A stretch of DNA of 64,000 nt. Origin: Candidatus Woesebacteria bacterium. GTDB lineage: Bacteria; Patescibacteriota; Microgenomatia; UBA8517. This document shows, one piece after another, positions 2,706 through 37,912 of this stretch (position 1 is its first letter; every line of letters begins with the position of its first letter). The notes under the pieces were generated by a model. That model was given only the letters and a program-made list of their open reading frames with translations, did not search any database and was not told the origin of the DNA. The position numbers were made by a program, and so were the translations under genes. The DNA is taken from NCBI GenBank assembly GCA_003484955.1, contig DMZH01000002.1, positions 145,700 through 209,699 on the forward strand, given 5' to 3'.

Positions 2706-2717
2706 GGAATGTTTGGA

Positions 2718-3041
2718 TTACCGTAGAAACACCTGGCCTGTAATATCCAGCCTGTAAATGCCTGGCTGGAACAGTATCCAGTTTTTAGAAGAACCTTTAA
2801 GAAATCCTCTCTCAAATTTATTTGAACTAAAATCCTCGACTTGTATGAAGACACTTTTTTCTTCCCTGACAAGGCGGATAAAATAATCTCCGAAAGGTTG
2901 TTCGAAGCCGGGAACTTCTAAATAAACTGGCAGCACTTTTCCTGGGTGTTTGGTTAGTTTTTTAGTAACATTGTTCCAAAAATCTGGCCACGCCATATTT
3001 ATCGGTTCAAGCTCGTTTTTCAATTCTTTTCTCATTGGCAA
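2718..3041 (-). CDS. Hypothetical protein (107 aa)
   Basis: ORF only; it fills the gap between greA and dus on the opposite strand. Confidence 0.3.
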   Translation of the reverse strand: MPMRKELKNELEPINMAWPDFWNNVTKKLTKHPGKVLPVYLEVPGFEQPFGDYFIRLVREEKSVFIQVEDFSSNKFERGFLKGSSKNWILFQPGIYRLDITGQVFLR

Positions 3042-3094
3042 CGGTATTTTAAGCCTGGGGGATATCTAAAGTCAAAATAGGTATAATATACTTA

Positions 3095-4048
3095 ATGGAG
3101 AATTTTTGGACAAAACTTCCCAAACCGTTTACAGTTTTGGCTCCAATGGACGATGTTACTGATAATGTATTCAGACAGGTAGTACTTTCAGCAGGGCGTC
3201 CAGATGTGTTTTTTACTGAATTCTCCAATGCTGACGGCCTCGTACATGGCGCCAACGGAATTCCATTGCGGAAACTCAACTTTACGCCTGATCAGCACCC
3301 TATTGTTGCCCAAATTTGGGGGACCGACCCTGTGAATATGGAAAAGGCGGCAAGAATAGCGGCGAAGCTCGGATTTGACGGAATTGATATCAATATGGGC
3401 TGCCCCGTAAAGGAAGTGGTCAAAAAGGGTGCTGGGGCGGGACTTATTGGGAGTTATAGCCTTTCAGAAAAGCTGATAGATGCTGTCAAAAAAGGTGCCG
3501 GGGGGCTTCCTGTCAGCATAAAAACAAGGCTTGGCAGGAATGAGAATATAGCGCAGGAATGGGTCACGTTTTTACTTAAAAAGAATATCGTAGCATTGAC
3601 TGTTCACGGCCGGATTGCCAAACAAATGTCAAAAGGTGAGGCTAGTTGGGAGGAAATCGGAAAAATTGTAAAAATCAGGGATAGAATCGCTCCGGAAACC
3701 CTGATTATCGGGAATGGCGATATTAAAAGCTATGCGGAAGTTTTAAAAATGCAGAAAAAACACGGAGTCGACGGGGTGATGATAGGACGCGGCATTTTCG
3801 GCAACCCATGGGTATTTGTTAAAGATTTGAAGCCAGTGGAACACCCCAAAAAAGATTATATTAACTTACTTCTCAGGCATATTGATCTTTTCAAGAATAC
3901 TTGGGGAGAAAGTAAAAATTTTGCCATACTCAAAAAGTTTTTCAAAATGTACGTTAAGGATTTTAAGGGAGCAAATAGCCTGCGGATAAAACTGATGGAG
4001 GCAGAGAATTTTGAGGAAGTAAGGAGGATTTTATGGAGCTTGGACTGA
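3095..4048 (+). CDS. dus: tRNA-dihydrouridine synthase
   Basis: Dus TIM-barrel motifs APMDDVTDNVFR and NMGCP, and a KTRLG FMN/substrate loop. Confidence 0.8.
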   Translation: MENFWTKLPKPFTVLAPMDDVTDNVFRQVVLSAGRPDVFFTEFSNADGLVHGANGIPLRKLNFTPDQHPIVAQIWGTDPVNMEKAARIAAKLGFDGIDINMGCPVKEVVKKGAGAGLIGSYSLSEKLIDAVKKGAGGLPVSIKTRLGRNENIAQEWVTFLLKKNIVALTVHGRIAKQMSKGEASWEEIGKIVKIRDRIAPETLIIGNGDIKSYAEVLKMQKKHGVDGVMIGRGIFGNPWVFVKDLKPVEHPKKDYINLLLRHIDLFKNTWGESKNFAILKKFFKMYVKDFKGANSLRIKLMEAENFEEVRRILWSLD

Positions 4049-4076
4049 TTTCTCAAAGATGCTAGAATAGCTTCAT

Positions 4077-7000: not shown

Positions 7001-7112
7001 TGTTAAGATCGAAAAGTTACCCATGAGTAAAAAACTTATTCAGTGGATGTTGAAGAAGGCGCAGATTTCTCATCTCGGGGAAGGAAAATTTGAAGTAAAA
7101 AGATCCTCCTAA
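4077..7112 (+). CDS. ileS: Isoleucyl-tRNA synthetase (type-2 / eukaryote-like HIGH region)
   Basis: 1011 aa. GPITANNPMGIHHAWG fits the GPPTANG-PH-GH motif. DWLISKKNRYWGLALPIW matches the DWCISRQRYWGxPIP box of IleRS/ValRS. AMHKSWGN is a KMSKS variant. A zinc-knuckle CPRCE and a C-terminal anticodon-binding extension are present. Confidence 0.7.
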   Translation: MAKKPFFDPVDQQVNFPELEKVLLEKWYKNGIVKKYLARNKNSKKYFSFMDGPITANNPMGIHHAWGRTYKDLWQRFKNMQGYRERFQNGFDCQGLWVEVEVEKELGFKTKKDIEVFGIDKFVQLCKDRVKKYSGIQTEQSKRLGYFMDWDHSYYTLSDDNNYMIWHFLKVCNEAGWIYKGQDAVAWCPRCETAISQHEMLTEDYKELTHESVFLAFPVTGQSEEYLVVWTTTPWTVPANVAVAVDPDLDYSLVGINGKKYWVAKGAKDRIFTGVKAKEIKTAKGSKLVGLRYKGAFDHLPKVIEASRNDKFHTVVATDDLILPINTEEGTGMVHVATSSGSEDFRLGKKLSLPVIEIIKDDASYMENLGFLSGENAKKHPELILDFLRKLDEAGKHFFYKTEKYTHRYPACWRCKTELVWKVADEWYIAMDKSSQISSRKSQTVKIEKWKDDEDEIKTPPDTRTLRERMKTVAAKINWIPGFGLDREMDWLTNMHDWLISKKNRYWGLALPIWECKKCHNFEIIGSKEELKQRAVSGWKDFEGKSPHKPQIDLIKVRCANCGAVMDRIEPVGNPWLDAGIVPFSTISEKNEACGFDVTKTKPMYVEDRDEWQKWFPIDFITESFPGQFKNWFYAMIAMSTVLTDVNPYKTVLGYGTLLAEDGRAMHKSWGNSIEFNEGADKIGADVMRWMFAKANPAENALFGYKVADEVRRRFHLKLWNVYNFFVTYANLDDWHPGVHKKPGRNSNILDRWILVRLGQTTELVGNALEKFDAASGAYEIEKFVDDLSLWYIRRSRDRVGPAKESEKDANAFYSTTYYVLYILGKLMAPFTPFLSDFIYTNLTKEISVHLSDWPEAPSEPSADEYELIKEMQAMRDIVEKVHAKRKELAIPVRQPLSKVKVYGQEKKSISPEVLKIAESELNIKTVDLLGGTDKIELDIVITPELKEEAGIRDIVRKIQEERKKLGLNLTQKIDVKIEKLPMSKKLIQWMLKKAQISHLGEGKFEVKRSS

Positions 7113-7113
7113 T

Positions 7114-8166
7114 ATGCGTTCCGTTACTAATTTTTTGTTTAAAGATATTACCCTAAGCCTGTCAATGCTATTTTTACTGGCTTTTAGCGTCGTGATCTTA
7201 AACTCTTTGGAAAAAAATCTTTTTCCTCTTTATTTTGTTTATATTTTTACAGCGCTTCTGGTTTTTTGGATTTTTTCCATGACTGACTTCGAAATTATTT
7301 CTTTATTTTCCAAGTATTTGTATATTATAAGCATCGCGCTTCTTCTTTTAACTTTCATAATAGGAAGCGTTACCAGAAATACCGTCAGGTGGATTCAGCT
7401 GGGGCCAACAAGTCTTCAACCAGCTGAAATTATCAGACCGTTTCTTTTGGTATTTTTTGCGAATTACTTGGGTAGGGGAGAAGTAACCTTAAAAAAGATT
7501 GGTAAGGCTCTCCTCCTTCTCCTTCTTCCTGTGGTGCTTATCCTGGCGCAACCTTCCTTGGGAGTTTCTATTTTAACCATCGTCGGATTTGTCGGTGTGT
7601 TAATGGCTTCTAAATTTAATAAAAAACATCTGATTGTCGGGCTCTTAATTGGTGTAGCGATTCTACCGATTGCCTGGCGTGCAATGGCTCCTTATCAAAG
7701 ACAAAGAATTACCTCTTTTTTGGAACCGGCTAAGGATCCGAGAGGGGCAGGTTACAATAGTATCCAGGCAACAATTGCGGCGGGATCAGGAAAAATTTTC
7801 GGAACAGGGCTCGGAAAAGGGGTTCAAACACAGTTGGCATTTCTACCTGAAAAACAAACAGACTTTGTCTTTGCGGCAACCGCGGAAGAGCTTGGTTTGG
7901 TCGGAGCGGGATTTGTTCTTCTTGCCAGTTTTTTAATACTCATAAGGCTTACCTTTTTTATGGAACACGCTGTTTCTCCTCAGGCGCGGGCATACCTTTC
8001 CGGGTTTTTCCTGACCTATCTGATACAACTTTTTGTCCATGTTGGCATGAATATGGGTATGCTTCCGGTGACAGGGCTGCCCTTTCCACTTCTTTCGGCG
8101 GGAGGATCATCCCTTCTTGCCACCACAATGGGGCTGGGAATTGCGCTGGGAGCCTATCGCAAATAA
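7114..8166 (+). CDS. ftsW: FtsW/RodA/SpoVE family peptidoglycan glycosyltransferase (SEDS)
   Basis: Polytopic membrane protein with RWIQLGPTSLQPAEIIRPFLLVFFANYL, and LPEKQTDFVFAATAEELGLVGA matching the SEDS core. Confidence 0.75.
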   Translation: MRSVTNFLFKDITLSLSMLFLLAFSVVILNSLEKNLFPLYFVYIFTALLVFWIFSMTDFEIISLFSKYLYIISIALLLLTFIIGSVTRNTVRWIQLGPTSLQPAEIIRPFLLVFFANYLGRGEVTLKKIGKALLLLLLPVVLILAQPSLGVSILTIVGFVGVLMASKFNKKHLIVGLLIGVAILPIAWRAMAPYQRQRITSFLEPAKDPRGAGYNSIQATIAAGSGKIFGTGLGKGVQTQLAFLPEKQTDFVFAATAEELGLVGAGFVLLASFLILIRLTFFMEHAVSPQARAYLSGFFLTYLIQLFVHVGMNMGMLPVTGLPFPLLSAGGSSLLATTMGLGIALGAYRK

Positions 8167-8235
8167 CAAACAGGTTCAATTCATCCGCAAGTTTTCACTT
8201 GCTGTTTTCTTGAATCTGCTATAAAATACACGGGT

Positions 8236-8541
8236 ATGTCAAAGTATGCGGTTGTCAGAATTACCGGAAAACAATACAAAGTAGAAGAGGGGCAGGAGAT
8301 CCTTGTAGACAAACTTATTGACCCTAAGAAAATTTCGGCCGAGGTTTTACTTGTTGCCGACGGAGAAAAAGTAAGCGTAGGGAAACCTGTTCTTAAAAAC
8401 GAAGTTAAACTTAAAGTTGTAACGGACCTGGAAAAAGGAGAGAAGCTAGAAATCTATAAATTCAAGGCTAAAAGCAGATATAAAAGACATACCGGGTTTA
8501 GAGCACAATATACAAGACTTCTGGTTGAGAAGATCAGTTAA
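8236..8541 (+). CDS. rplU: 50S ribosomal protein L21
   Basis: MSKYAVVRITGKQYKVEEGQ... with a ...RHTGFRAQYTRL C-terminus typical of L21. Confidence 0.85.
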   Translation: MSKYAVVRITGKQYKVEEGQEILVDKLIDPKKISAEVLLVADGEKVSVGKPVLKNEVKLKVVTDLEKGEKLEIYKFKAKSRYKRHTGFRAQYTRLLVEKIS

Positions 8542-8568
8542 TATATCAAACTATAACTTTCTGTCCTC

Positions 8569-8597
8569 TTGACAACTGTGAAAACATCGATTATATT
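8569..8597 (+). promoter_or_regulatory. Sigma70-like promoter candidate upstream of rpmA (TTGACA-17-TATATT)
   Basis: TTGACA at 8569-8574, a 17-nt spacer, and TATATT at 8592-8597. Confidence 0.3.
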
Positions 8598-8618
8598 GTT
8601 GCTTAAGTTCAAAATAAT

Positions 8619-8870
8619 ATGTCAACACATAAAGCAGGAGGAAAAGCTTCACAACATGTAAGTCCGGCAGGAAAACGATTGGGCGCTAAGGTTTCCGATG
8701 GGGAAAAAGTGGTAAAAGGACAGATTCTAATTAGACAGAGAGGAACAAAATTTTCAAAAGGAGCGGGTGTAAAAGAAGGCCGCGACCATACCCTTTATTC
8801 AATTTTAGACGGAAACGTAAAAGTAAGCAGAAAAATAGGTAAACAGATAATGTCTGTTATTTCTAAATAA
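8619..8870 (+). CDS. rpmA: 50S ribosomal protein L27
   Basis: HKAGGKAS...GKRLGAKVSDGEKVVKGQILIRQRGTKF is the L27 signature. Confidence 0.85.
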   Translation: MSTHKAGGKASQHVSPAGKRLGAKVSDGEKVVKGQILIRQRGTKFSKGAGVKEGRDHTLYSILDGNVKVSRKIGKQIMSVISK

Positions 8871-23723: not shown

Positions 23724-24444
23724 AGTTGAGGCTTATATTTTTTTCAGTAGTATTTCCTGCTTGATCGGTTGACTTTACATTAAAGGTATTCGAGCCTTCA
23801 TTTAGGGTCGTAGTATATTGAAAAATTCCCGAATCGTCAACTGAAATAATTCTGTCATTAATTGTAACTTTGGCGTCAGTTTCGGTCTTTCCTGTGATTG
23901 TAATTTGTCTTTGATTGGATCCAAAATAGCTGGAACCGTCTGAGGGTGAAGTTATTTCCAAATCAGGTGTTTTCTTGTCAAAAGTTATTTGATGGTCATC
24001 TGATTTTTGGCTTTGGTTTCCCGATTGATCGGTGGCGGTTGCCGCAAAAGTATTTATTCCATCCTGCAAGGTTACGCCAAACGAAAATTGTCCATCGTTG
24101 TCAGCCAAGACCTCTTGAGGACTTCCATTAAAAGTAAGTTTTACTGAGGCTCCCGATTCCGTATTACCTGTCAATGTCAGGGTTTGTTGGTTAGTGAATT
24201 CCGGAAAATATTTAAATTTAGGGGGTGGGGGCGGTGTAAAATCGGAGTTGCTGATTTTATTGTTATTACCTCTAAGACTGGAGACAAGTGAGGCAAGTCT
24301 GCCAAGAGCCGGTATTCCGATAAAATAAAGTATCGCAATGGCGGCAATTGTCAGCAATATATAAAAAGTAGCGCTTCTTGTGTTTTTTCTCTCCTCGGAA
24401 TTTATAAACCTTCTTGTAAACTTTTTCATTTTATTTTTGAGCAT
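23713..24444 (-). CDS. Membrane-anchored surface protein with two bacterial Ig-like (Big) domains
   Basis: N-terminal TM anchor, a PPPPP linker, and repeated TLTGNTESGASVKLTFNG...DQSGNQS / ITITGKTETDAKVTIND...DQAGNTT modules. The start codon lies inside the left 187-bp inverted repeat. Confidence 0.5.
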   Translation of the reverse strand: MLKNKMKKFTRRFINSEERKNTRSATFYILLTIAAIAILYFIGIPALGRLASLVSSLRGNNNKISNSDFTPPPPPKFKYFPEFTNQQTLTLTGNTESGASVKLTFNGSPQEVLADNDGQFSFGVTLQDGINTFAATATDQSGNQSQKSDDHQITFDKKTPDLEITSPSDGSSYFGSNQRQITITGKTETDAKVTINDRIISVDDSGIFQYTTTLNEGSNTFNVKSTDQAGNTTEKNISLNFTS

Positions 24445-24625
24445 GTTTATAATTTAGCTCGAACTCATTTTACAACAAAATACTAACAATTACATTTGCG
24501 TCAAGAAAAGGGGTTAAAGGGGAAATGAATTGACGCGAATGTCGTGTTGTCGCTCAGTCCCGCTTCGCGGGACTTCGCTAACTCTGTTCTCTTGCTCGCT
24601 CCTTTCAGTCGCTCGCAATACGCCA
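24439..24625. repeat. Left copy of a perfect 187-bp inverted repeat (IR187-L)
   Basis: Identical over all 187 nt to the reverse complement of 34539-34725. Contains the hairpin AGTCCCGC-TTCG-GCGGGACT. Confidence 0.9.
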
Positions 24626-25137: not shown

Positions 25138-25776
25138 ATGGCAGACGACACACCACAAGACACTACAACAACTCAAGACACACCTGCAGATCAACCAGTA
25201 GTTCAACCCGAACCACCGAAAGTCGAGGAGACTCCTGACGAAATTCCACCAACTGAAACTTCAGCAGAAGAAAAACCAACACCAACAGAAGAACCCAAAC
25301 CAGAAAATCCTCCCGAAGTTCCTGAAATTCCCCGAACTCCCGAAACATCCAAGGAGGAAACTAAAACAGAAGAGAAACCAACAGAAACAAAAGCAGAAGA
25401 ACTAAAAACAGACGAGAAACCCAAAGACGTGTCCGCCGAAGTCTCGACGAAGGTGGAAGAAGTTAAACCAGAAGTACCCGCTCCCGAATCTCCCAAACAA
25501 CCCGAAAAACCTATACCCGCCGAAACTTCAGTGAAGGAGGGCCAACCAAACCTTGACGACTTAAGAGACAAAGCAAACAAAGAGAGACAAGACAGAAAAC
25601 AGGAACATTTATCAGAAGTTGAGAAGTTAGCTAAATCAAAACAAATTAACAATGATGATGTCCGTGAGCTTTTGCACGTTTCCCAAAGTACAGCAACAAA
25701 TTATCTGGAAGAATTGACCAAACAGGGGAAAATCAAGAAGTCTGGGAAGGCAAAAGCTACTTCGTACTCTTCTTAA
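25138..25776 (+). CDS. Acidic low-complexity (P/E/T/K-rich) protein with a C-terminal winged-HTH DNA-binding domain
   Basis: About 150 aa of PEPK/TPTEE-type disordered repeats, then DVRELLHVSQSTATNYLEELTKQGKIKKSG (wHTH). Confidence 0.45.
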   Translation: MADDTPQDTTTTQDTPADQPVVQPEPPKVEETPDEIPPTETSAEEKPTPTEEPKPENPPEVPEIPRTPETSKEETKTEEKPTETKAEELKTDEKPKDVSAEVSTKVEEVKPEVPAPESPKQPEKPIPAETSVKEGQPNLDDLRDKANKERQDRKQEHLSEVEKLAKSKQINNDDVRELLHVSQSTATNYLEELTKQGKIKKSGKAKATSYSS

Positions 25777-26713: not shown

Positions 26714-27043
26714 ATGGAAGTACCTATTATGAACTACGGAAAAGCACTCAAAATTGCACGCTCCGCGCGAAACATTTCTCAGAAAGATTTAAGTGATGCT
26801 ATTAGTTTGGATCCAAGCTATATTTCGCTTATAGAAAAAGGTAAAAGAATACCGACTATCGAAACTCTTGAGAAAATTGTAAAAAGTCTCAATATCCCAA
26901 TACATCTGTTTTTTCTATTGGCATCTGGCAAGAATCAAATGAAGAAAATGCCGTCTAGTAAAAAGGCGGGGGTAGCAGAGTTGTTGTTGGATCTTCTTCT
27001 TTCCACTGAAAAAAATGAGCACTCTCCAAAAAACAAAAATTAA
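26714..27043 (+). CDS. XRE-family helix-turn-helix transcriptional regulator
   Basis: ISQKDLSDAISLDPSYISLIEKGKRIPTIETLEKIVKSL matches the Cro/C1 HTH. The 3' end overlaps the RT start by 29 nt. Confidence 0.7.
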   Translation: MEVPIMNYGKALKIARSARNISQKDLSDAISLDPSYISLIEKGKRIPTIETLEKIVKSLNIPIHLFFLLASGKNQMKKMPSSKKAGVAELLLDLLLSTEKNEHSPKNKN

Positions 27044-27992
27044 ATCAGTTGCTGAACTTTCGCAAACTCTAAAGGTTGGTGTTAAGGAATTCGTCAAAAC
27101 CGCTAAAAATGCAAATTTGTTTTATAGACCATTTGATCTTAGCAAAAAAGGATCTGAAAAATGGAGACACATAGATAATCCAACAGGCAAACTCAAAATA
27201 ATCCAAAAGGCTATAAACAAACAAATTTTGCGCGACTTAATGTTTCAACTTCCACCTAATATCATGGGTGGTATCGAGAACAAATCTATTCTTGAAAATG
27301 CCAAAGTACACGTTGGACAAGAAATGGTTGTCACGATAGATATCAAAAATTGCTTTCCTAAAACAAAAAATGAGGTCATCTTTACCATCTGGAAAAATTT
27401 ATTGGGATTCGAGCCGAATAGTGCAAGGTTATTAACCCAATTAACTACAACAAAGGGACACCTACCTCAAGGTTCCCCTGCGAGTCCATCTTTATCAAAT
27501 CTTGCCCTACTTCCGATTTCAAAAGAAATTTTGAATTATTCAAAAAAACATCATTTGAACTTTACTATATATGTTGACGATATTACATTATCCGGAAAGA
27601 AAAGTTCAGCATTAGATTCAATTAGCCCAGTTGTTAAAATCATTCAAAAATATGGCTATGCAATAAGAAATAAGAAAGTTAAAAAAATGCCTTCATATAA
27701 AACTCAAACGACAACAGGAATCCAACTAAACTCTGAAATTTCCATTGGAAAGCAGAAGATTGATGAAATTAGGAAGGAAATAATTAATCTTGCCAAACTA
27801 CAAAAGCCGTATATCACTAAAAAATCAATTTTTAGCAAAATTGATTATGTAAAAAAAATTTCGCCAGAAAAAGGACAAAAACTACTAGAGTTTGCCAATA
27901 TGATATTGGAGGAAGATATTGATTATATTGCTGTTGATCCAGAAAAAGACGAAAAAAGAGATTGCAATGGAAAGGCCTGCCTAGCTAAATAG
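27015..27992 (+). CDS. Reverse transcriptase, retron-type (no maturase or endonuclease domains)
   Basis: RT motif 1/2 TIDIKNCFPKT, motif 4 LPQGSPASPSLSNLAL (retron-like LPQGAPTSPxLSNL), motif 5 YVDDITLSG, and a downstream TTGIQLN that matches the retron VTG region; 325 aa. Confidence 0.7.
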   Translation: MSTLQKTKIKSVAELSQTLKVGVKEFVKTAKNANLFYRPFDLSKKGSEKWRHIDNPTGKLKIIQKAINKQILRDLMFQLPPNIMGGIENKSILENAKVHVGQEMVVTIDIKNCFPKTKNEVIFTIWKNLLGFEPNSARLLTQLTTTKGHLPQGSPASPSLSNLALLPISKEILNYSKKHHLNFTIYVDDITLSGKKSSALDSISPVVKIIQKYGYAIRNKKVKKMPSYKTQTTTGIQLNSEISIGKQKIDEIRKEIINLAKLQKPYITKKSIFSKIDYVKKISPEKGQKLLEFANMILEEDIDYIAVDPEKDEKRDCNGKACLAK

Positions 27993-28052
27993 GTCAATTA
28001 CTTCGCTTTAGTACATTCGTACAAGAGCAAAAAGTGCTAAAATACACACATA

Positions 28053-30320
28053 ATGGCTAATTCATTAAATCTTTCTGACAACGAAAAGCGAGATATTATT
28101 AAATTTTTACAAGAAGGCAAATCTCTTCCTGAAAAATATAGATTTCTTCTTTTTAATGACGATCGTGAAGTTGAGCTTTTGTGGAATGGTAAAACAAATG
28201 AAGTTACTAATGTAGTATTGCCCTTTCAGGTAATAGAGCAAATTGACGAGCCAAGAAGTGATGCCAAATTCGGAATGCAAAACACACTTTTTGATACTAC
28301 TGGTCGACAAATTACAGGGTGGACAAATAAACTTATTTGGGGCGACAACAAATTAATACTTTCTTCACTCAAAAATGGTCCACTTCGAAAAGGAATTGAA
28401 GCACAAGGCGGTATAAAGTTGATTTACATTGACCCGCCCTTTGACGTTGGTGCTGACTTTTCAATGAATATAGAAGTTGGAGAAGATAGTTTTACCAAAA
28501 AACCCTCTGTAATTGAGGAAATTGCATATAGGGATACTTGGGGCAAAGGTGCAGATAGTTTTATTGCAATGATTTATCAAAGATTAAAATTGATGCACGA
28601 TTTATTGGCTAACGATGGAAGTATCTATGTCCATTGCGATTGGAGATTAAATAGCTATATGCGTTTAATCCTTGATGAAATTTTCGGTAAAGAAAATTAT
28701 AGAAATGAAATTGTTTGGAAACGCACATATTCTACAAAAGCACAGAGTATTAGCTTTGGTAAAACTCATGAACTTATTTTGTTTTACGCAAAAAGTGAAA
28801 GTACTAAATTAAAACAACTTTATCAAAAGCCAGATGAAGGGTATGTAGATAAATATTTTAATAAAACGGACGAAAATGGCAAAAAGTATCAATCTTTAAG
28901 CTTAACCCAACAAGGACAAGGACCAGCTAGATATTTTGGAGACAAACTAATAGAACCGACTAAGGGAATGCATTGGATTTGGTCGCAGGATAGAATCACT
29001 AAAGCTTTTCAAGAAGGTAGAATAGTTTTTACTAAAAATGATTTTCCAAGACTTAAAAAATACCTTGAGGATTGGAATGAACAAGGTCGTCCAATTGATG
29101 GTCTTTGGGTGGATGATGAAGTCGGGCCTCTAAACTCGTGGCACAGTGAATCACTCGATTATCCAACTCAAAAACCTGAATCGATGCTCACTCGCATAAT
29201 TCAATCCAGCAGTAATGAGGGAGATTTGGTTGCAGATTTTTTCTGTGGATCGGGAACAACACTTGCAGTTGCTGAAAAATTGAATAGAAAGTGGATAGGG
29301 TCTGATCTGGGAAAATTTGGAATACATACAACAAGAAAAAGAATGATAGGAGTGCAAAGAGAACTTAAGAAAGATGGCAAAGATTTTAGAGCTTTTGAAA
29401 TATTAAATGTTGGTAAGTATGAAAGAGATAGTTATCTAACAACAAATGATGATTTGAGAGCTGAAGAAAGAATAAAGCAAGCAGAAAGGAAAGAAAAAGA
29501 ATTCGTAAAACTTATTGTTACTGCCTATAAAGCAGAACTCATTGAATCATTTGTAAATATTGTAGGTAAAAAACGAGATAGACTAATTGCGGTTGGTCCA
29601 ATAAATACTCCTGTATCCTCTAAGTTTATTCAACAAGTAGTAAATGAATGCAAAGATAAAAATTTAACTAAAGTAGATATTTTAGGTTTTGACTATGAAA
29701 TGGGTATGAACATTGAGGAATATAGAAGTCAAAGTATTGATATTGTTTTTAAGGTAATTCCGAGAGAAGTTTTTGATAAACAAGCTGTAGAAAAAGGACA
29801 AGTTAAGTTTTACGATGTCGCATATATTGACGCAAAACCAGTTGTAAAGGGTGGAGCTAAAAGCAAGGAGTTGTCCATCGAGCTTACTGACTTTTCAGTT
29901 TTTTATAACCAAGATGCGAGTGATGATGTTTCTGAAAGTTTAAGACCTGGTGGAACAAAAGTTGTTGTTGAAAATGGACAAGTTGTTAAATTAACAAAAG
30001 ATAAAGAGTCTGATGTTGTATCAAAAGAAGTTTTAACTAAAAAATGGAGTGACTGGATTGATTATTGGGCAGTTGATTATAATTTTTCTGATAGAAAAGA
30101 AGTAATAATTGACCAAGACGATAAAGGTGAATATGTTGAGGCTTGGACAGGGGACTATATTTTTGATAACGAATGGCAAAGTTTTAGAACAAATAAAAAT
30201 AGAAATCTTGAATTAACTTCAACTCCAAGAGAAATGATAAAAGGAAATTATAAAGTTGCTGTTAAAGTTGTTGATATTTTTGGCAATGATACAACTAAAA
30301 TTATTGAGGTAAATATTTAA
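28053..30320 (+). CDS. mod: Type III restriction-modification Mod subunit (beta-class N6-adenine/N4-cytosine DNA methyltransferase)
   Basis: Motif IV IYIDPPF precedes motif I DFFCGSGTTLAVAEKLNRKWIGSDL (order IV-TRD-I); 755 aa. Confidence 0.75.
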   Translation: MANSLNLSDNEKRDIIKFLQEGKSLPEKYRFLLFNDDREVELLWNGKTNEVTNVVLPFQVIEQIDEPRSDAKFGMQNTLFDTTGRQITGWTNKLIWGDNKLILSSLKNGPLRKGIEAQGGIKLIYIDPPFDVGADFSMNIEVGEDSFTKKPSVIEEIAYRDTWGKGADSFIAMIYQRLKLMHDLLANDGSIYVHCDWRLNSYMRLILDEIFGKENYRNEIVWKRTYSTKAQSISFGKTHELILFYAKSESTKLKQLYQKPDEGYVDKYFNKTDENGKKYQSLSLTQQGQGPARYFGDKLIEPTKGMHWIWSQDRITKAFQEGRIVFTKNDFPRLKKYLEDWNEQGRPIDGLWVDDEVGPLNSWHSESLDYPTQKPESMLTRIIQSSSNEGDLVADFFCGSGTTLAVAEKLNRKWIGSDLGKFGIHTTRKRMIGVQRELKKDGKDFRAFEILNVGKYERDSYLTTNDDLRAEERIKQAERKEKEFVKLIVTAYKAELIESFVNIVGKKRDRLIAVGPINTPVSSKFIQQVVNECKDKNLTKVDILGFDYEMGMNIEEYRSQSIDIVFKVIPREVFDKQAVEKGQVKFYDVAYIDAKPVVKGGAKSKELSIELTDFSVFYNQDASDDVSESLRPGGTKVVVENGQVVKLTKDKESDVVSKEVLTKKWSDWIDYWAVDYNFSDRKEVIIDQDDKGEYVEAWTGDYIFDNEWQSFRTNKNRNLELTSTPREMIKGNYKVAVKVVDIFGNDTTKIIEVNI

Positions 30321-33011
30321 ATGGCATTACATAAAGATTTTCCAAAAGATCCGTACGCAATACTTGACCCTTCGATCAGGTGGTTTCCTGCTGACGAAGT
30401 CTTAAGAGAAAAAGGATATGATAAATTACTTCCACCACTCGTTGCTGATCTCCGAAAAAAAGTAAAAGAATGGAGAGATAAAAATTATGAAGGTGCGAGT
30501 GAAACTTCACAATCACTTTTGAATTGGTGGTTTAAGGAAGATCATGTTGTATACGATCAACATGGTGTTTCTTCAAATTTTAGATATTACTTTGCGCAAA
30601 GAGAAGCTTTAGAAACTGTCATATGGCTTTATGAAGTTGCCAAGGTAAAAGATAAATACGATCTAATTAGATACAACTCAACTCAAGTATTAAGTGCGGG
30701 TATGTTTACTGAGGATTGGTTAAGATTTGTAATCAAAATGGCAACAGGAGCAGGAAAGACAAAAGTTATGAGTTTAATTATTGCTTGGGCATATTTTCAT
30801 AGAAAATATGAGTTAGATTCTAATCTTTCAAAAAACTTTCTATTAATTACTCCAAATGTAATAGTATTTGAAAGAATCAAAAATGACTTTGAAGGTCTAA
30901 AGATATTTTTTACAGATCCGGTTTTACCTGATAATGGATATAATGGTCAAAATTGGCAAGATGATTTTCAATTAACATTACACTTACAAGATCAGTTAAG
31001 TACCATTTCAGATACCGGAAATATATTTTTAACTAACATACACAGAGTTTTTGAAGGAAATATTAAAGAAGCGAGTTTAGATGACGAAGATGTTTCTTCG
31101 TACTTCTTAGGTCGTAAACCAGTTACAAAAACTAACGATTCGACAGTTGACCTTGGTATGATTGTTCGAGATATTGATGAACTGATTGTTATAAATGATG
31201 AAGCCCACCATATACACGATGAAAATATGGTTTGGTATAAATCTATACTTGATATTGACAACAAGTTAAAACAAAAAGGATCAGGTCTCGCACTTCAATT
31301 AGATCTAACAGCCACTCCAAAAAAGAATGATGGCTCGATATTCGTGCAGGTAATATCTGACTATCCTTTAGTCGAAGCAATTCATCAAAGAATTGTCAAA
31401 AATCCAGTAATACCTGATGGGGCAAGTCAGGGGAAATTAAAGGAAAACCAAAGTATTTTGTTTAGTGAAAAATATAGAGACTATATTAATCTTGGAGTTG
31501 AAGAATGGAGGAAAACATATAAAACCTTAGAACCGATGGGTAAAAAATCAATTTTATTTATAATGACGGATGATACAAAAAACTGTGATGAAGTAGCTGA
31601 ATATATTAAAACAAGTTTTTCTGATCTTCGCGATGCAGTTTTAACAATCCACACTAATAAAAGCGGAGAGATTTCAGAAAGCGTTGGTGGTAAAAACGAA
31701 GAAGATTTAATACTTCTCCGAAAACAAGCTAATGAAATTGATAGTTGGGAAAGTCCTTTCAAAGTAATAGTTTCTGTAATGATGCTTAAAGAAGGCTGGG
31801 ATGTAAAAAACGTAACTACTATTGTAGGTCTTAGACCTTACGCAGCGGATTCAAAGATTCTTCCAGAACAAACGCTTGGTAGAGGTTTAAGGAGAATGTT
31901 TTTTGGCAGAGATGATGTTGAAGAATATGTAAGTGTAATTGGTACCACCGCTTTTATGGAATTTGTTGAATCAATTCAAGGGGAGGGTGTAATGCTTGAG
32001 CGAAAAGCTATGGGTGCAGGATCAAAGCCAATTACACCTGCAGTTATTGAAGTTGATAAGGAAAATCCAAATAAAAATATTGAAAAACTTGATATAGAAA
32101 TACCTGTAATGACTCCAAGAATCCAAAGGGAATATAAAAATCTTGCCAATTTAGATGTTTCTCAATTTGGAAATAAGAAAGTAAGTGTAAAGACTTTCTC
32201 AGAACAAGAAAAAAGAGAAATTATTTTCAAAGATGTTGTTGACGAAAAAATACATCATACAACTGTACTAACTGGCGATATTGAACCAGATTATAGAAGT
32301 GTAATTGGTTTTTTTGCCCAAGCTGTAATGAGAGAACTTAGGCTTTTTGGTTGTTATGACATTTTGTTTGAAAAAGTAAAGGAATTTATCGAGAAATATT
32401 TATTTGATATTACAGTTGATTTATCAGATCTCAATATATTAAGAAACTTGTCAGAAGTAGAATATATAAAATTTATTAAAGACACATTCAAAGATGCCAT
32501 TAATAACTTAACAATTCAAGATACTGGAGACACTGAAATCAAAAATTATATTAAAATTAGTGAAGCAAGACCATTTGTTGTTAATGATAAATCATATTTA
32601 ATTCCAAAAAAATCAGTATTTAATAAAATTGTAGGAGATAGTAATTTTGAACTTACTTTTGCTGATTTTCTTGAAAACTGTGAAGATGTAATTTCATTTT
32701 CCAAAAATTATCAAAACAAAGAAGCGAGTGCATTAAGAATTGAATATAAAAATTCAGAAGGGTTAATCGCAAACTATTATCCAGACTTTTTCGCAAAATT
32801 GGATGATAAAACTGTTTACATAATTGAAACAAAAGGCCGAGAGGAAGATGATGATAAACTAAAATTTGAAAGATTACAAAAATGGTGCATCGATGTAAAC
32901 AGTCGTCAAACAAAAGTGGAATATAAATCTCTATATATTAAGCAAGAAGAATGGGAAAATAATAAATTAAAAAATTTTGACGAGGTTGTTAGGTTATTTA
33001 CATCTATTTAA
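30321..33011 (+). CDS. res: Type III restriction enzyme Res subunit (SF2 DEAH helicase plus C-terminal PD-(D/E)xK endonuclease)
   Basis: Walker A ATGAGKTKVM, motif II VINDEAHH, helicase C region VSVMMLKEGWDVKNV, and a C-terminal YYPDF...VYIIETKG nuclease motif. The start abuts the mod stop. Confidence 0.75.
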   Translation: MALHKDFPKDPYAILDPSIRWFPADEVLREKGYDKLLPPLVADLRKKVKEWRDKNYEGASETSQSLLNWWFKEDHVVYDQHGVSSNFRYYFAQREALETVIWLYEVAKVKDKYDLIRYNSTQVLSAGMFTEDWLRFVIKMATGAGKTKVMSLIIAWAYFHRKYELDSNLSKNFLLITPNVIVFERIKNDFEGLKIFFTDPVLPDNGYNGQNWQDDFQLTLHLQDQLSTISDTGNIFLTNIHRVFEGNIKEASLDDEDVSSYFLGRKPVTKTNDSTVDLGMIVRDIDELIVINDEAHHIHDENMVWYKSILDIDNKLKQKGSGLALQLDLTATPKKNDGSIFVQVISDYPLVEAIHQRIVKNPVIPDGASQGKLKENQSILFSEKYRDYINLGVEEWRKTYKTLEPMGKKSILFIMTDDTKNCDEVAEYIKTSFSDLRDAVLTIHTNKSGEISESVGGKNEEDLILLRKQANEIDSWESPFKVIVSVMMLKEGWDVKNVTTIVGLRPYAADSKILPEQTLGRGLRRMFFGRDDVEEYVSVIGTTAFMEFVESIQGEGVMLERKAMGAGSKPITPAVIEVDKENPNKNIEKLDIEIPVMTPRIQREYKNLANLDVSQFGNKKVSVKTFSEQEKREIIFKDVVDEKIHHTTVLTGDIEPDYRSVIGFFAQAVMRELRLFGCYDILFEKVKEFIEKYLFDITVDLSDLNILRNLSEVEYIKFIKDTFKDAINNLTIQDTGDTEIKNYIKISEARPFVVNDKSYLIPKKSVFNKIVGDSNFELTFADFLENCEDVISFSKNYQNKEASALRIEYKNSEGLIANYYPDFFAKLDDKTVYIIETKGREEDDDKLKFERLQKWCIDVNSRQTKVEYKSLYIKQEEWENNKLKNFDEVVRLFTSI

Positions 33012-33698
33012 ATGTATAAACTTTCACCATCAGATTTTGCATATTTATACGAGGAATGTAAGCTTTGCTATTACTTAAAGATTAAACATGGAATATACCA
33101 ACCAAGCATGCCAATGCCTGGAGTTTTTTCTGCAATAAATACTCGACTTCAAGGAAATTTGGTTGGTAAAAATCTTCACACGCTTTCAGAAAAGTTGCCA
33201 GATGGGATCGTTGAAAATCAAGAAGGTTGGGTTGAATCAAAACCAGTTCCTGATACGGAAGTATTTATAAAAGGCAAATACGATTTATTAGTTAAACTTC
33301 CTGATGACACGCACCTATTGGTTGATCTAAAAATTAGCACACCGGGGGATGATAAAATTGAAAAATATAAAACTCAACTTAATGCCTACAAATTTGCTCT
33401 TGAAAATCCAGCTAACGGAAACCCTATAAAATTAACAAGGCTTGGACTTTTGATTTTTTATCCAGACCAAGTTAGTTTTGAGAAAGGAAGTGCTACCCTA
33501 ACTTTTCCTCCAAGCTGGTTAGAGGTTCCTGCTGATCAAACAGGATTTTTAGCTTTTGCAAAAAGAATAGATAAATTACTTTCGGGTCCAACACCAGAGG
33601 AGGGAAAAGAATGTAAATGGTGCAAATATAGACATTTGGGAGATACCCTTTCTCATACTGATACTGGAAGTGTGAAGGATGACACAATTCCATTTTAA
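33012..33698 (+). CDS. Cas4/RecB-like PD-(D/E)xK nuclease with four Cys (probable Fe-S cluster), not CRISPR-linked
   Basis: N-terminal CKLC, core GKYDLLV ... LLVDLKIS (D...D-x-K), a QLNAY (QxxxY) motif, and a C-terminal CKWC. The start abuts the res stop. Confidence 0.55.
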   Translation: MYKLSPSDFAYLYEECKLCYYLKIKHGIYQPSMPMPGVFSAINTRLQGNLVGKNLHTLSEKLPDGIVENQEGWVESKPVPDTEVFIKGKYDLLVKLPDDTHLLVDLKISTPGDDKIEKYKTQLNAYKFALENPANGNPIKLTRLGLLIFYPDQVSFEKGSATLTFPPSWLEVPADQTGFLAFAKRIDKLLSGPTPEEGKECKWCKYRHLGDTLSHTDTGSVKDDTIPF

Positions 33699-33946
33699 GG
33701 AGTTAACTTTGGTGTTGTACAACAGTGAAGTATATTGACAATTTGCCACCAAATGGTAACAATGGTATTATACTTCTCCAATGACTAAAACTAACAAATC
33801 TCAACCAACTAAAAAAGCAGTTTATTTTATTGCTACAAAATATAAAAATAGGCAGACTCGTGTCAGTCTATATACAAAAGACTGGAAAAGTGTCGCTAAA
33901 AGCGATGCTACGGATAAACTCGGATATTCATTAGAATAACTTCTCC

Positions 33947-34459
33947 ATGGGTAAGAAAAATAAATCTCCGTTAACCCCAATGGATTTTCAGTTGGGTTCT
34001 GGAGGCGTCATTCCCTCCACCCAGGAAGCTTTTGGACCAAACAAAGAATTCTCTGGAAATATACGAAAAGAAGAAAGCGGCGCGACTGCAGAATTTAAAA
34101 AAGCTCTTGGTACCCAGATAGATGTCGAAATTGGTGAGTTGAAACAGTTCCCTTCGGATAAGGAGTTTTTTGTGTTTATAATTCAATACTTTGTTTCAGA
34201 CAAAGAATATAAGGCCAGAGACCTGGACAATATGGCTAAAACCATGCTGGACTTATTGAAAGGAAGATTTTATAAAGACGATGGACAAGTTAAGACACTC
34301 TTAGTTGGTAAGAAGATGGAAAAACGTGTTCCTAAAAATTTTATATATTTTGCATTAAAAGAAATGAAGGATGACAGAGATATTGATGCCCTGAAGATTT
34401 CCGGGCTAGAAAGATCAGTCACTCTTTTCAATGAACAAGTGGCAAAAGGACTTTGCTGA
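33947..34459 (+). CDS. rusA: RusA-like Holliday junction resolvase (phage-type)
   Basis: ARDLDNMAKTMLDLLKGRFYKDDGQVKTLLVGKK matches the RusA motif DLDNxxKxxLDxLxGxxxxDDxQV...K. Confidence 0.55.
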   Translation: MGKKNKSPLTPMDFQLGSGGVIPSTQEAFGPNKEFSGNIRKEESGATAEFKKALGTQIDVEIGELKQFPSDKEFFVFIIQYFVSDKEYKARDLDNMAKTMLDLLKGRFYKDDGQVKTLLVGKKMEKRVPKNFIYFALKEMKDDRDIDALKISGLERSVTLFNEQVAKGLC

Positions 34460-34538
34460 TACTAAAAATTGGCTTCAATTGTATAAAATAGTTATTCGAT
34501 TTTTTAATTGAGTATTTTATATTATCAATAGGCACGAG

Positions 34539-34725
34539 TGGCGTATTGCGAGCGACTGAAAGGAGCGAGCAAGAGAACAGAGTTAGCGAAGTCCCGCGAA
34601 GCGGGACTGAGCGACAACACGACATTCGCGTCAATTCATTTCCCCTTTAACCCCTTTTCTTGACGCAAATGTAATTGTTAGTATTTTGTTGTAAAATGAG
34701 TTCGAGCTAAATTATAAACATGCTC
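34539..34725. repeat. Right copy of the perfect 187-bp inverted repeat (IR187-R)
   Basis: The reverse complement of 24439-24625, with 187/187 identity. Confidence 0.9.
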
Positions 34726-34773
34726 CCAAGATAAATTTTTTGAAGAGGCGCGAAGCGCCGACCAAGCGAATTG
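34725..34773. repeat. 49-bp inverted repeat, copy a (IR49-a), immediately abutting IR187-R and upstream of the recombinase gene
   Basis: CCCAAGATAAATTTTTTGAAGAGGCGCGAAGCGCCGACCAAGCGAATTG is the reverse complement of 36275-36324 apart from a 1-nt indel. Confidence 0.85.
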
Positions 34774-34838: not shown

Positions 34839-36386
34839 ATGGTAAATAAATTCTTCCTCTACGCCAGAAAGTCCACAGATGTAGAAGATATGCAGGTTCT
34901 TTCAATTGAAGCTCAAATTAATGAACTCCGTGAGTTAGCCAAGAAAGAAGGTTTAGAGATAGTAGATGAGCTAATTGAAAAGAAATCTGCAAAAAATCCC
35001 GGAAGGGTAATTTTTAATTCCATGCTTGATAGAATTGAAAAAGAAGAAGCTAATGGAATTATATCTTGGCACCCAGATAGACTTGCCAGGAATAGTGTGG
35101 ACGGAGGAAGAATTATTTACCTCTTAGATAGAAATAAATTATCTGCCCTCAAATTTAATACCTTTTGGTTTGAATCTACTCCTCAAGGAAAGTTCATGCT
35201 TAGTATTGCATTTTCTCAAAGTAAATATTATGTAGATTCCTTGTCAGAAAACACCAAAAGAGGACTTCGCCAAAAAGCTAAAAATGGATATTGCCCCAGT
35301 GTTGCCCCAATTGGTTATTTAAATGATTCAAGAAACAAAACTATTGTTTTAAATAAAAAAGTTGGTCCAATTATCAAAGAAACTTTTGAACATTATAGTA
35401 ACGGCAATATCCTAATGCGTGAAGTAAGTAGCTTTTTGGCTGAACGTGGAATACTTCTTCCTAGTGGTAGACCCTTCGGTCTTTCAAGAATTAGAAAAAT
35501 CTTAACAAATCCATATTATTATGGTCATTTTATATATGCGGGAGAAGTATATGAGGGCAGACACGACCCAATAATTTCAAAGCTACTTTTTGACAAAGTC
35601 CAAGAAATTATTAATAGAAAAAATAAACAGTGGAGTAAGGCTAGAGTAGAAAGAGTTCACAAGCCTTACGTTGGACTTTTGACGTGTGGTGAGTGCGGAA
35701 TGGGCATTACAGCTGATTTTAAAGATAGACATTATAAAAACGGCAATTGTAGCCATTTTAATTATTACAGGTGTACTAAAAAGGATAAAACTACAAAATG
35801 TCTACAATCCCATATCCGCGAGGAGGACTTGGATAGTCAGCTCACCACACTTCTCAAAAAGTACACTTTGAAAAATGCTTGGGCAATAAAAATGAATAAG
35901 AAACTAGATATTGAATCAAGAGATATTGCCCAATCATCCCTTTCTGTCATTTCTCTCAAGAGAAAAGAAATTGATAATTTGAATTCTAAACTCCAGCTTC
36001 TTTTAGACAGTTATTTAGATCAAATAACTGATAAAGAAATGTACAAAAAAAAGAAGCTTGAGTTATTCTCTCAAAAGAAAACTTTTGAGGAACAAATTAT
36101 CAATTTGCAAAACCAGAAAGGGAATTGGATCGAACCTATGAGAAAGTGGATATCCGAAGCAAGTGAAGTGGATCAAATAATATCAACAAACAATAAAGAC
36201 GATAAAAAGGTTCTCGCTTCAAAAATCTTCGGCTCGAACCTCTTTTTGGAAGACAAAAAAGTCCGTGGAGTAGGCCAATTCGCTTGGTCGGCGCTTCGCG
36301 CCTCTTCAAAAAATTTATCTTGGGAGCCGAGAGTGGGGATCGAACCCACGACCTGCGGTTTACGATACCGCCGCTCTGCCAACTGA
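34839..36386 (+). CDS. Large serine recombinase (resolvase catalytic domain, recombinase domain and zinc ribbon)
   Basis: N-terminal FLYARKSTDVEDMQ...Q with the catalytic Ser in YxRxST, the resolvase core GIISWHPDRLARN, a recombinase domain, and a Zn ribbon CGECGMG...C...YYRC. The 3' end reads ~60 nt into tRNA-Thr (...GIEPTT...). Confidence 0.75.
   Translation: MVNKFFLYARKSTDVEDMQVLSIEAQINELRELAKKEGLEIVDELIEKKSAKNPGRVIFNSMLDRIEKEEANGIISWHPDRLARNSVDGGRIIYLLDRNKLSALKFNTFWFESTPQGKFMLSIAFSQSKYYVDSLSENTKRGLRQKAKNGYCPSVAPIGYLNDSRNKTIVLNKKVGPIIKETFEHYSNGNILMREVSSFLAERGILLPSGRPFGLSRIRKILTNPYYYGHFIYAGEVYEGRHDPIISKLLFDKVQEIINRKNKQWSKARVERVHKPYVGLLTCGECGMGITADFKDRHYKNGNCSHFNYYRCTKKDKTTKCLQSHIREEDLDSQLTTLLKKYTLKNAWAIKMNKKLDIESRDIAQSSLSVISLKRKEIDNLNSKLQLLLDSYLDQITDKEMYKKKKLELFSQKKTFEEQIINLQNQKGNWIEPMRKWISEASEVDQIISTNNKDDKKVLASKIFGSNLFLEDKKVRGVGQFAWSALRASSKNLSWEPRVGIEPTTCGLRYRRSAN
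36275..36324. repeat. 50-bp inverted repeat, copy b (IR49-b), inside the recombinase 3' coding region and ending 1 nt from the tRNA-Thr 3' end
   Basis: Reverse complement of 34725-34773 with one extra nucleotide. Contains the hairpin GGCGC-TTCG-(C)GCGCC. Confidence 0.85.
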
Positions 36387-36397
36387 GCTACCTCGGC
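36325..36397 (-). tRNA. tRNA-Thr (anticodon CGT)
   Basis: Manual cloverleaf on the minus strand: acceptor GCCGAGG/TCTCGGC (G7-U66 wobble), D-arm GCTC-AGTTGGCA-GAGC, anticodon stem GCGGT/ACCGC with loop ATCGTAA, T-arm GTGGG-TTCGATC-CCCAC, discriminator U. Confidence 0.8.
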
Positions 36398-36429
36398 TTA
36401 TGTGCTCAATTATAGCATTTCTGGGCGTG

Positions 36430-37225: not shown

Positions 37226-37489
37226 CGGGATCGACGAGATTCGGACTCGCAACCTCTTCCGTGCACCTTTTTGTTTCCAAAAAGTTTGGACTATCTCATC
37301 ATCCTAAAAATAGGAGCCAGGTATATAGTCTCTACACATTTACTACGTTCACATAAACTGAACGCAGCTTTAGCTCGGGATTGCCATCTTAAAGGTTTCC
37401 CCGAATTAGCCTGGTTTTACATTCCAGATCACTCTGGAACGCTGCCACAATCGACAGGGAAGCGCTCTAGCCAGTTGAGCTACGACCCC
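37226..37489 (-). tRNA. Split tRNA gene, probably tRNA-Asp(GTC), with a ~190-nt intervening sequence (putative intron) in the anticodon loop
   Basis: The 5' half (37458-37489) is GGGGTCG-TA-GCTC-AACTGGCTA-GAGC-G-CTTCC, followed by loop nts CTGT.... The 3' half (37226-37260) is GGAAG-AGGTT-GCGAG-TCCGAAT-CTCGT-CGATCCC-G. The halves pair into a canonical cloverleaf only if 37261-37457 is removed. The predicted mature loop is CTGTCAC, and the intervening sequence ends in G. Confidence 0.5.
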
Positions 37490-37501
37490 AATACACGTAT
37501 T

Positions 37502-37912
37502 TTACCAGTAATAGTCTTTAGCCGCAATTACACCTTTTTCTTGGTTATTTTTTGATTTTTCTATTCTTATACTTAGTTTCTTTTTACCAACAAAAATAGC
37601 TTTTGGGAAAAAGCATAATTTATCAATTTTTGGAATATACACGATCAGGGCGTCAACCTCATTTTTCTTGTATGTATAAGTATTTTTTCTTCTGTCAACA
37701 TACTCAAGTTTTACAACAACAGATCCATGCGTATTTGAAGGTTTTCCGTTGGCATATTTTACTTGTAAGCGGGAGAGACGAAGACCATCATCAATAATTA
37801 AATCATATCGGGCATCAAACAAAGGTCTGCTGGGCAAATATCCCAATTCAAATGCTCTTAACTCGGCCTTACTTACGGCCAATTGTCCTTTTGTGTTGGT
37901 GGTTGTCTTCAT
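37502..37912 (-). CDS. Hypothetical protein, possible PD-(D/E)xK (Hjc-like) nuclease fold
   Basis: Weak E...YDLIID...LQVKY pattern (E-D-QxK); 136 aa. Confidence 0.25.
   Translation of the reverse strand: MKTTTNTKGQLAVSKAELRAFELGYLPSRPLFDARYDLIIDDGLRLSRLQVKYANGKPSNTHGSVVVKLEYVDRRKNTYTYKKNEVDALIVYIPKIDKLCFFPKAIFVGKKKLSIRIEKSKNNQEKGVIAAKDYYW

Follow-up and report, generated by a model that had tools for sequence, protein, structure and literature searches.

The 64,000-nucleotide stretch of Candidatus Woesebacteria contig DMZH01000002.1 analyzed here (the window) carries, at positions 33012 to 33698 of the forward strand, the gene of a solo Cas4-family nuclease of 228 amino acids (aa) with an ATG start. 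Judged by its sequence and a structure model, the open reading frame (ORF) encodes a stand-alone PD-(D/E)XK nuclease that shares its structural class with Cas4, AdnAB, Dna2, MGME1, and EXO5, and sequence comparison places the protein in a strongly conserved family that is widespread in Patescibacteria. The gene directly follows the two genes of a Type III restriction-modification (RM) system, of which it is not a component. A broader, type-agnostic pattern was seen instead: RM genes of several classes showed strong enrichment on the upstream side of the family and were nearly missing on the downstream side. We favor, with about even confidence, the reading that the protein serves Patescibacteria as a nuclease for processing DNA ends in general and that RM cassettes have repeatedly been inserted or exchanged beside its gene.

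Neighboring genes were compared over eight positions on each side of the nuclease gene. RM-like genes accounted for 23 of 392 upstream genes and 1 of 410 downstream genes (P = 7e-7), and 20 of 70 loci had an RM-like gene upstream. Without the seed loci themselves, 18 of 387 upstream genes were RM-like (P = 2e-5). Since the RM seeds had been drawn from upstream neighbors, the test was repeated with unbiased Pfam scans. At positions −2 and −3, the commonest Pfam families were N6_Mtase (8 genes), Eco57I (8), Methylase_S (6), HSDR_N (4), ResIII (4), and GmrSD_N (3), versus nucleotidyl transferases, translation GTPases, FtsW, IF-2, and Mur ligases at positions +2 and +3, where the Pfam scan found no RM family with two or more members. 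The linked RM genes were of Type I in loci L010, L038, and L054, of the IIG/MmeI-like type in L001, L089, and L047, and of Type III in the window, L050, and L151, and consisted of an EcoRI-like methylase with GmrSD/HNH in L037 and L062. Gaps between RM and nuclease genes were 0 to 7 nucleotides (nt) in the window, L001, L010, L038, and L050, and in close pairs nucleotide homology ended at the ORF boundaries of the nuclease. We rejected the idea that RM-linked members constitute a subfamily; they were scattered in sequence space, and the nearest neighbor was RM linked in 2 of 14 cases. That solo-Cas4 genes lie beside RM genes in some DPANN genomes, and that solo-Cas4 is abundant in the candidate phyla radiation (CPR), was already reported in 2017 (PMC5704561).

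The genes upstream of the nuclease in the window fit the two-gene Type III architecture. The Mod methyltransferase (28053 to 30320, forward strand) matched Pfam N6_N4_Mtase (1.3e-45) and PADLOC MTase_III (5.9e-106). It is followed by a Type III-like Res of 896 aa (30321 to 33011, forward strand), comprising a helicase and a C-terminal PD-ExK endonuclease, with matches to Pfam ResIII (2.5e-16), weakly to RE_endonuc, and to PADLOC REase_III (4.8e-20); its score against NF046055 (276 bits) was below the cutoff. The TAA of res (33009 to 33011) is followed at once by the ATG of the nuclease gene (...ATT TAA ATG TAT...), leaving a 0-nt spacer and no overlap; given this junction, the translational coupling to res stated in the preliminary description may exist. 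The preliminary description of this DNA had called the nuclease the third gene of the Type III cluster, a claim that, in any conserved sense, did not survive a reciprocal survey of its co-occurrence with Type III Res. Homologues of the window's Mod and Res were found in 1 of 78 nuclease genome loci (L050, in which Res was 77% identical and the nuclease only 60%), and a nuclease, a 47%-identical allele, was found in 1 of 65 metagenome Res loci (L151). The latter survey covered 80 metagenome loci with Res 68 to 88% identical, of which the 65 with at least 700 nt of downstream sequence were counted. The closest homologue of the nuclease among the matches listed (92% identity) and another at 81% had unrelated neighborhoods. 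The close Res family thus normally lacks the nuclease, and Type III RM systems are not known to include a third, nuclease subunit. The window's Mod-Res pair itself belongs to a very conserved and widely spread family (L090 to L169, the 80 metagenome contigs surveyed). Many of these loci have 1 to 2 kb of extra DNA between mod and res (e.g., L090, with Mod at 2351 to 4432 and Res at 6001 to 8682), while the two genes abut in the window, and several have serine recombinases nearby.

The protein database contained 903 relatives of the nuclease, and the 120 of them that were listed, 69 to 92% identical, served as the set of close homologues. Upon clustering at 50% identity, this tight group collapsed into essentially one representative, and the wider family comprised 561 clusters at E < 1e-10. 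In a scan of one genome per species, members were found in Woese-, Roizman-, Berkel-, Nealson-, Beckwith-, Shapiro-, Levy-, and Amesbacteria, Paceibacterota, Saccharimonadales, and WWE3, with remote relatives in Firestonebacteria, Dehalococcoidales, and Nitrospinae. The 80 nuclease loci returned stemmed almost wholly from different genomes, which is consistent with what is apparently a single copy per genome. The 135 immediate neighbors represented 113 Pfam families, none of them in more than 4 loci, and the gene therefore has no fixed operon partner. Homologues of the RusA and retron genes found near the nuclease in the window were not associated with the family elsewhere, RusA being present in none of the other family loci. 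In one lineage (L003, L011, and L066), the nuclease gene is resident between ftsZ and ileS (ftsA-ftsZ/nuclease/ileS synteny), with 84% nucleotide conservation versus 79% for the flanks. Accessory DNA in L066 has been inserted flush against both ends of the nuclease ORF. There, a RhuM-family gene (6539 to 7573) lies between ftsZ and the nuclease gene and overlaps the start of the latter by 8 nt, at a place where the sister genomes have a 276-nt spacer, and a second insertion, of approximately 680 nt, is flush with the nuclease stop.

We take the start codon of the nuclease gene to be correct because the N terminus MYKLSPSDF was common to the 120 homologues. All of the motifs quoted in the preliminary description were present in the translation, on the forward strand: an N-terminal CxxC (CKLC, C16 and C19; 33057 to 33068) that provides predicted metal or Fe-S ligands; the catalytic core G88-x2-D91...D105-x-K107 (GKYDLLV...VDLK, PD-(D/E)XK motifs II and III; 33273 to 33332) and the QxxxY motif (QLNAY, Q122 to Y126; 33375 to 33389), both also supported by conservation and profile alignment; and a C-terminal CxxC (CKWC, C201 and C204; 33612 to 33623), likewise conserved and aligning with the CxxC of SSO0001 and ACE1. 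Nine residues (C16, C19, D91, D105, K107, Q122, Y126, C201, and C204) were invariant across 25 close homologues and invariant or at least 90% kept in 44 diverse relatives of 27 to 43% identity, in which C19 never varied and C16 was kept in at least 90%. Each of the 120 close homologues possessed GxxD...DxK, QxxxY, and the two CxxC pairs, so that the conservation of the catalytic residues and the four cysteines, on which the earlier assignment had leaned, was complete in that set. GxxD...DxK was matched by 120 of 123 diverse full-length relatives, defined as sharing at most 50% identity. Because the key residues are invariant or at least 90% kept in both close and diverse relatives, the motifs are not due to chance.

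The assignment of the fold as that of a Cas4-like nuclease is right, because family models, AlphaFold2 with Foldseek, and profile search concurred; Pfam, PADLOC, Foldseek, and the profile search likewise agreed with the stand-alone Cas4/RecB(AddB)-type PD-(D/E)XK nuclease that had been proposed. Pfam PDDEXK_1 (PF12705) matched residues 81 to 208 with 39.2 bits (gathering cutoff, 22; E = 9.9e-10), no match to PF01930 was reported in the Pfam scan at E ≤ 0.01, and PADLOC Cas4 models matched weakly (1e-8 to 4e-4). The AlphaFold2 model, made from the alignment of 44 diverse relatives, had a predicted local distance difference test score (pLDDT) of 92.1 and a predicted template modeling score of 0.86, residues ~211 to 228 excepted, and Foldseek with this model agreed on a Cas4-like fold. 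When the family sequence profile was compared with PDB sequences, matches to SSO0001 (4IC1; E = 1.7e-3), ACE1 (E = 0.013), and AdnB (E = 0.06) were obtained; these alignments brought the catalytic block and the C-terminal CxxC into register and placed QxxxY opposite QLQIY in SSO0001 and QLAVY in AdnB. PvuII, the top profile match, was dismissed as due to chance, being without the cysteines and covering the N-terminal segment only, and the sole match in a single-sequence search of PDB sequences was spurious.

The Cas4/AddB nuclease-domain architecture assigned in the preliminary description held for the fold class, the PD-(D/E)XK core, QxxxY, and the presence of four cysteines, but neither for the cysteine layout nor at the level of the NCBIfam Cas4 equivalog TIGR00372, against which the protein scored 25.7 bits (cutoff, 65). 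The canonical arrangement in Cas4 and AddB, as in SSO0001, is C-Xn-C-X2-C-X5-C, i.e., 1+3. The nuclease has a 2+2 layout instead (CxxC...CxxC, C16/C19 and C201/C204); CxxCx5C was found in 0 of 120 close homologues and 2 of 123 diverse relatives, and residue 210 (5 after C204), the expected site of a third C-terminal cysteine, is an invariant glycine. Most of the 123 diverse relatives likewise have the 2+2 layout. CRISPR Cas4 (SSO0001/PDB 4IC1; Cas4-Cas1, 7MI4; PF01930, TIGR00372) has the same PD-(D/E)XK core and QxxxY, is of similar size (~200 to 230 aa), and likewise has N- and C-terminal cysteines expected to staple the fold with a metal cluster. [quoted passage not shown] Compared with the nuclease domains of AdnAB/AddAB/RecB, Dna2, EXO5, and MGME1, it is much smaller, is without a fused or adjacent helicase, and differs in cysteine spacing.

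The earlier statement that the window holds neither a CRISPR array nor cas genes also held. No CRISPR-like array was found in the window by Tandem Repeats Finder, Rfam, or a direct-repeat scan. Of the 40 remaining ORFs that are 150 aa or longer, none matched a core cas gene, a scan in which shorter ORFs (e.g., Cas2) were not included; there were only weak generic matches to DinG/Csa3/CasR-type models among those 40 ORFs. Three sets of neighbors from the family loci (375 proteins in all) were also scanned, and in each of them the 25 commonest Pfam families included no cas family. Patescibacteria, according to the CPR literature, rarely have CRISPR.

The protein ends in a disordered tail (33642 to 33695, forward strand; pLDDT of ~50) with the acidic tip DDTIPF (33678 to 33695). 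The C terminus of the window protein reads ...KDDTIPF, and those of other family members read QDEIPF or QEEIPF; an [ILMV]PF carboxyl end was present in 99 of 120 close homologues and in only 2 of 123 distant relatives. The nuclease thus has the features by which an SSB C terminus (SSB-Ct) was recognized, namely, a disordered linker, acidic residues, and a terminal [IL]-P-F. The C-terminal tip of Escherichia coli SSB is DDDIPF (PMC5872125), and a Woesebacteria SSB in locus L007 (8993 to 9541) ends in ESEDIPF. An unrelated 268-aa protein in L006 (4871 to 5677) ends in ...TKDIPF. Judging from such C termini, Patescibacteria may make wider use of tails that resemble the SSB tip. The acidic IPF tail of the nuclease probably docks the enzyme on a partner that normally recognizes the SSB C terminus or, alternatively, folds back as an autoinhibitor.

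In the window, the nuclease gene is part of an island bounded by a 198-nt inverted repeat, the left arm of which (24428 to 24625) is 97% complementary to the right arm (34539 to 34736). A search of the repeat with Rfam revealed no known RNA. The 9.9-kb segment between the arms carries genes for an acidic protein, a TrpR-like protein, a Type VI retron-like pair, Mod and Res, and the nuclease, as well as that for RusA. The G+C content at third codon positions (GC3) was 0.21 for Mod, 0.20 for Res, and 0.22 for the nuclease, versus 0.31 to 0.40 for RusA, the recombinase beyond the island, and host genes, and therefore points to joint acquisition of a three-gene block. It appears that the Mod-Res-nuclease block was acquired together into an inverted-repeat-bounded island at tRNA-Thr. 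In a promoter and terminator scan, counts were not above those in shuffled sequences, and neither a terminator between res and the nuclease gene nor a strong internal promoter was found.

A 7.6-kb contig of another Patescibacterium (L037) had the same 198-nt repeat (98% identity) at both ends (5 to 141 and 7462 to 7598). Relative to the window, its left module was 81 to 84% and its right end 93% identical at the nucleotide level, and the nuclease was the last gene there too, whereas the cargo differed (the EcoRI-like methylase with GmrSD/HNH), as did the nuclease allele (65% nucleotide identity). The 198-nt repeat looks like the mark of a family of inverted-repeat-bounded, possibly invertible or mobile, cassette-carrying elements; an artifact of assembly or multiple displacement amplification is possible. 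A promoter-like junction of 63 nt that includes the first mod codon (27993 to 28055, forward strand; 87% identity to L037 3420 to 3486) lies immediately upstream of the first methylase codon in both the window and L037, despite their unrelated RM cassettes. As a general cassette boundary this junction was rejected, its core being present in the window and L037 only. A 15-nt piece of it, the extended −10-like 15-mer AAAAGTGCTAAAATA, alone recurs (window, 28030 to 28044; L001, 3216 to 3230; L089, 1183 to 1197; L094, 747 to 761; L037, 3456 to 3470), sitting 8 to 30 nt before the first gene of the RM operon in each of these five loci, whose operons represent different RM types (rough chance expectation, ~0.15).

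Directly upstream of mod lies the Type VI retron-like pair (26714 to 27992, forward strand), consisting of a helix-turn-helix gene (26714 to 27043; PADLOC HTH_VI, 8.6e-22) and a reverse transcriptase gene (27015 to 27992; PADLOC RT_VI, 4e-69; Pfam RVT_1) with a YVDD motif. At the left end of the island, a 212-aa protein without a Pfam match (25138 to 25776) is 84% conserved in L037 at the nucleotide level; it has a long, acidic, repetitive N-terminal part rich in Pro, Glu, Thr, and Lys and a short C-terminal segment that looks DNA binding. The RusA-like resolvase gene (33947 to 34459, forward strand; Pfam RusA, 1.9e-9) is held in a block (33699 to 34465) that is an insertion relative to L037, where the alignment has a gap. 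Just outside the island, a large serine recombinase (34839 to 36386, forward strand; Pfam Resolvase, Recombinase, and Zn_ribbon_recom) is flanked by 52-nt perfect inverted repeats found by repeat search (34722 to 34773 and 36276 to 36327), and its 3' end overlaps tRNA-Thr (36321 to 36398, reverse strand), into which the ORF runs antisense. One of the 52-nt arms consists of the tRNA-Thr 3' end plus downstream sequence, and the 198-nt repeat places a duplicated promoter-like region ahead of the recombinase. Farther on, a group I intron (37267 to 37470, reverse strand; Rfam, 79 bits) adjoins a PDDEXK_5 homing-endonuclease-like ORF (37502 to 37912, reverse strand).

Under the reading that we favor, the family would act as a general repair, recombination, or DNA salvage gene rather than as a subunit of one defense system. 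By homology, D91, D105, and K107 are predicted to bind Mg2+ or Mn2+ and cut DNA, and Q122 and Y126 to contact the DNA end. C16 and C19, in an N-terminal helix, and C201 and C204, in a C-terminal helix, would hold an Fe-S cluster or Zn and so staple the ends of the fold together; we infer from homology that the four cysteines converge on one cluster. Like its structural relatives, the nuclease would most likely act by threading free DNA ends (5' single strands) and degrading them. Whatever their type, mobile RM cassettes would enter or swap immediately upstream of the nuclease gene, possibly with this gene as a homology anchor, and its position flush behind res would be one case of this recurrent situation. 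The nuclease gene would have been captured here along with a Type III cassette, and its cotranscription with res is probable, since Mod, Res, and the nuclease were apparently acquired together as a block. The product may opportunistically degrade restriction fragments, although the Type III enzyme would not need it.

Several observations weigh against this reading. The upstream-only, mostly co-oriented layout of the RM genes would fit a functional RM partnership equally well as an insertion hotspot, and so would the joint exchange of nuclease and RM cargo that sets the window apart from L037. In several loci, gaps of 0 to 7 nt leave no space for a promoter of the nuclease's own, although tight spacing is common throughout these compact genomes. 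The bias from drawing RM seeds from upstream neighbors was only partly removed by dropping self-matches and by the Pfam scans, and the downstream neighbors of the family were judged to be housekeeping genes from 16-kb neighborhoods. A partnership of this kind, in which the nuclease is a type-agnostic helper that degrades the DNA ends made by any RM type, thereby boosting defense and/or nucleotide salvage, and its gene moves with RM cassettes at their 3' terminus, is a real possibility, though one from which we lean away. RecBCD in E. coli degrades DNA ends left by restriction. Such a helper would account for the strong, polar concentration upstream of at least five kinds of RM genes, the flush junctions in the window, L001, L010, L038, and L050, the GC3 shared with Mod and Res, the swapping of the nuclease allele together with RM cargo within the same island frame, and the three independent juxtapositions of Res with divergent nuclease alleles (window, L050, and L151). 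Precedents exist in the Cas4-family protein ACE1, which assists a prokaryotic Argonaute (pAgo) (PMC12094033), and in the solo-Cas4 genes beside RM genes in DPANN (PMC5704561). However, about 70% of the family loci had no RM-like gene within 8 kb upstream, the context in the division and cell wall (dcw)/ileS lineage is one of stable housekeeping genes, 64 of 65 close Res homologues lacked the nuclease, and the RM-linked members form no clade. More tentatively still, the restriction cassettes of Patescibacteria may carry this family as a portable, type-agnostic "end gene," the unusually conserved sequence of which would serve as a 3' homology anchor for RM swaps between genomes, while its product, recruited via the SSB-like tail, would degrade restriction-made ends as a candidate stand-in for a RecBCD/AddAB-type step.

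That the nuclease is instead part of a recombination module of the mobile island, a phage-like exonuclease that, with RusA and the serine recombinase, serves the element's own replication or recombination, we think unlikely. Its gene does lie inside the island between res and the RusA-like gene, 1.1 kb from the large serine recombinase, it had a weak PHROG "exonuclease" match (E = 0.0015), and L031 also has a downstream serine recombinase. Yet RusA was in no other family locus and is an insertion relative to L037, most family loci were without recombinase or phage genes, and no annealase or SSB partner was nearby. The TAAATG junction with res and the low GC3 shared with Mod and Res are what would be expected of a dedicated third subunit of the window's Type III enzyme, but this explanation is largely refuted by the reciprocal survey, in which the pairing was seen once among 65 Res loci and once among 78 nuclease loci; Res, moreover, has its own C-terminal PD-ExK endonuclease region, and we regard such a subunit as very improbable. 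We attach next to no probability to a relic of a CRISPR adaptation module, i.e., a Cas4 that lost its partners, given the missed Cas4 equivalog cutoff, a noncanonical cysteine pattern that is family-wide, a window without an array or core cas genes (array scans; ORFs of at least 150 aa), and the lack of cas families among the top 25 Pfam families in the three neighbor sets of 375 proteins. We retain, at the strength given at the outset, the reading of a general end-processing nuclease with RM cassettes repeatedly placed beside its gene.

Among known systems, the solo-Cas4 of CPR and DPANN (Hudaiberdiev et al. 2017, PMC5704561) is likewise a stand-alone Cas4-family gene of small-genome, CRISPR-poor lineages, for which that paper proposed a role in repair or defense; the study centered on PF01930/COG1468 and treated PF12705, the family matched by our nuclease, only briefly. 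ACE1 (PDB 9IAB; PMC12094033) is consistently co-encoded and complexed with its pAgo, whereas pairing of the nuclease with any one RM system is rare. Three features look new, namely, the 2+2 arrangement of the cysteines, the tail resembling that of SSB, and the RM linkage, which was quantified here and is confined to the upstream side; they are unmentioned in the passages of PMC5704561 consulted, no dedicated literature search having been made for them. Literature on Cas4, Patescibacteria, and restriction yielded nothing on this nuclease family. For annotation, the locus serves as a warning that a gene flush with res need not belong to the restriction system. Although the sampled neighborhoods were rich in RM genes, little is known of how Patescibacteria process DNA that is broken or foreign. 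For such a DNA-processing step, this widespread solo Cas4-like nuclease, in which the metal-binding layout is altered and the tail is SSB-like, is a concrete candidate, and its polar RM linkage offers a testable case of either a generic nuclease that boosts restriction or a conserved gene that serves as a landing pad for the exchange of defense cassettes.

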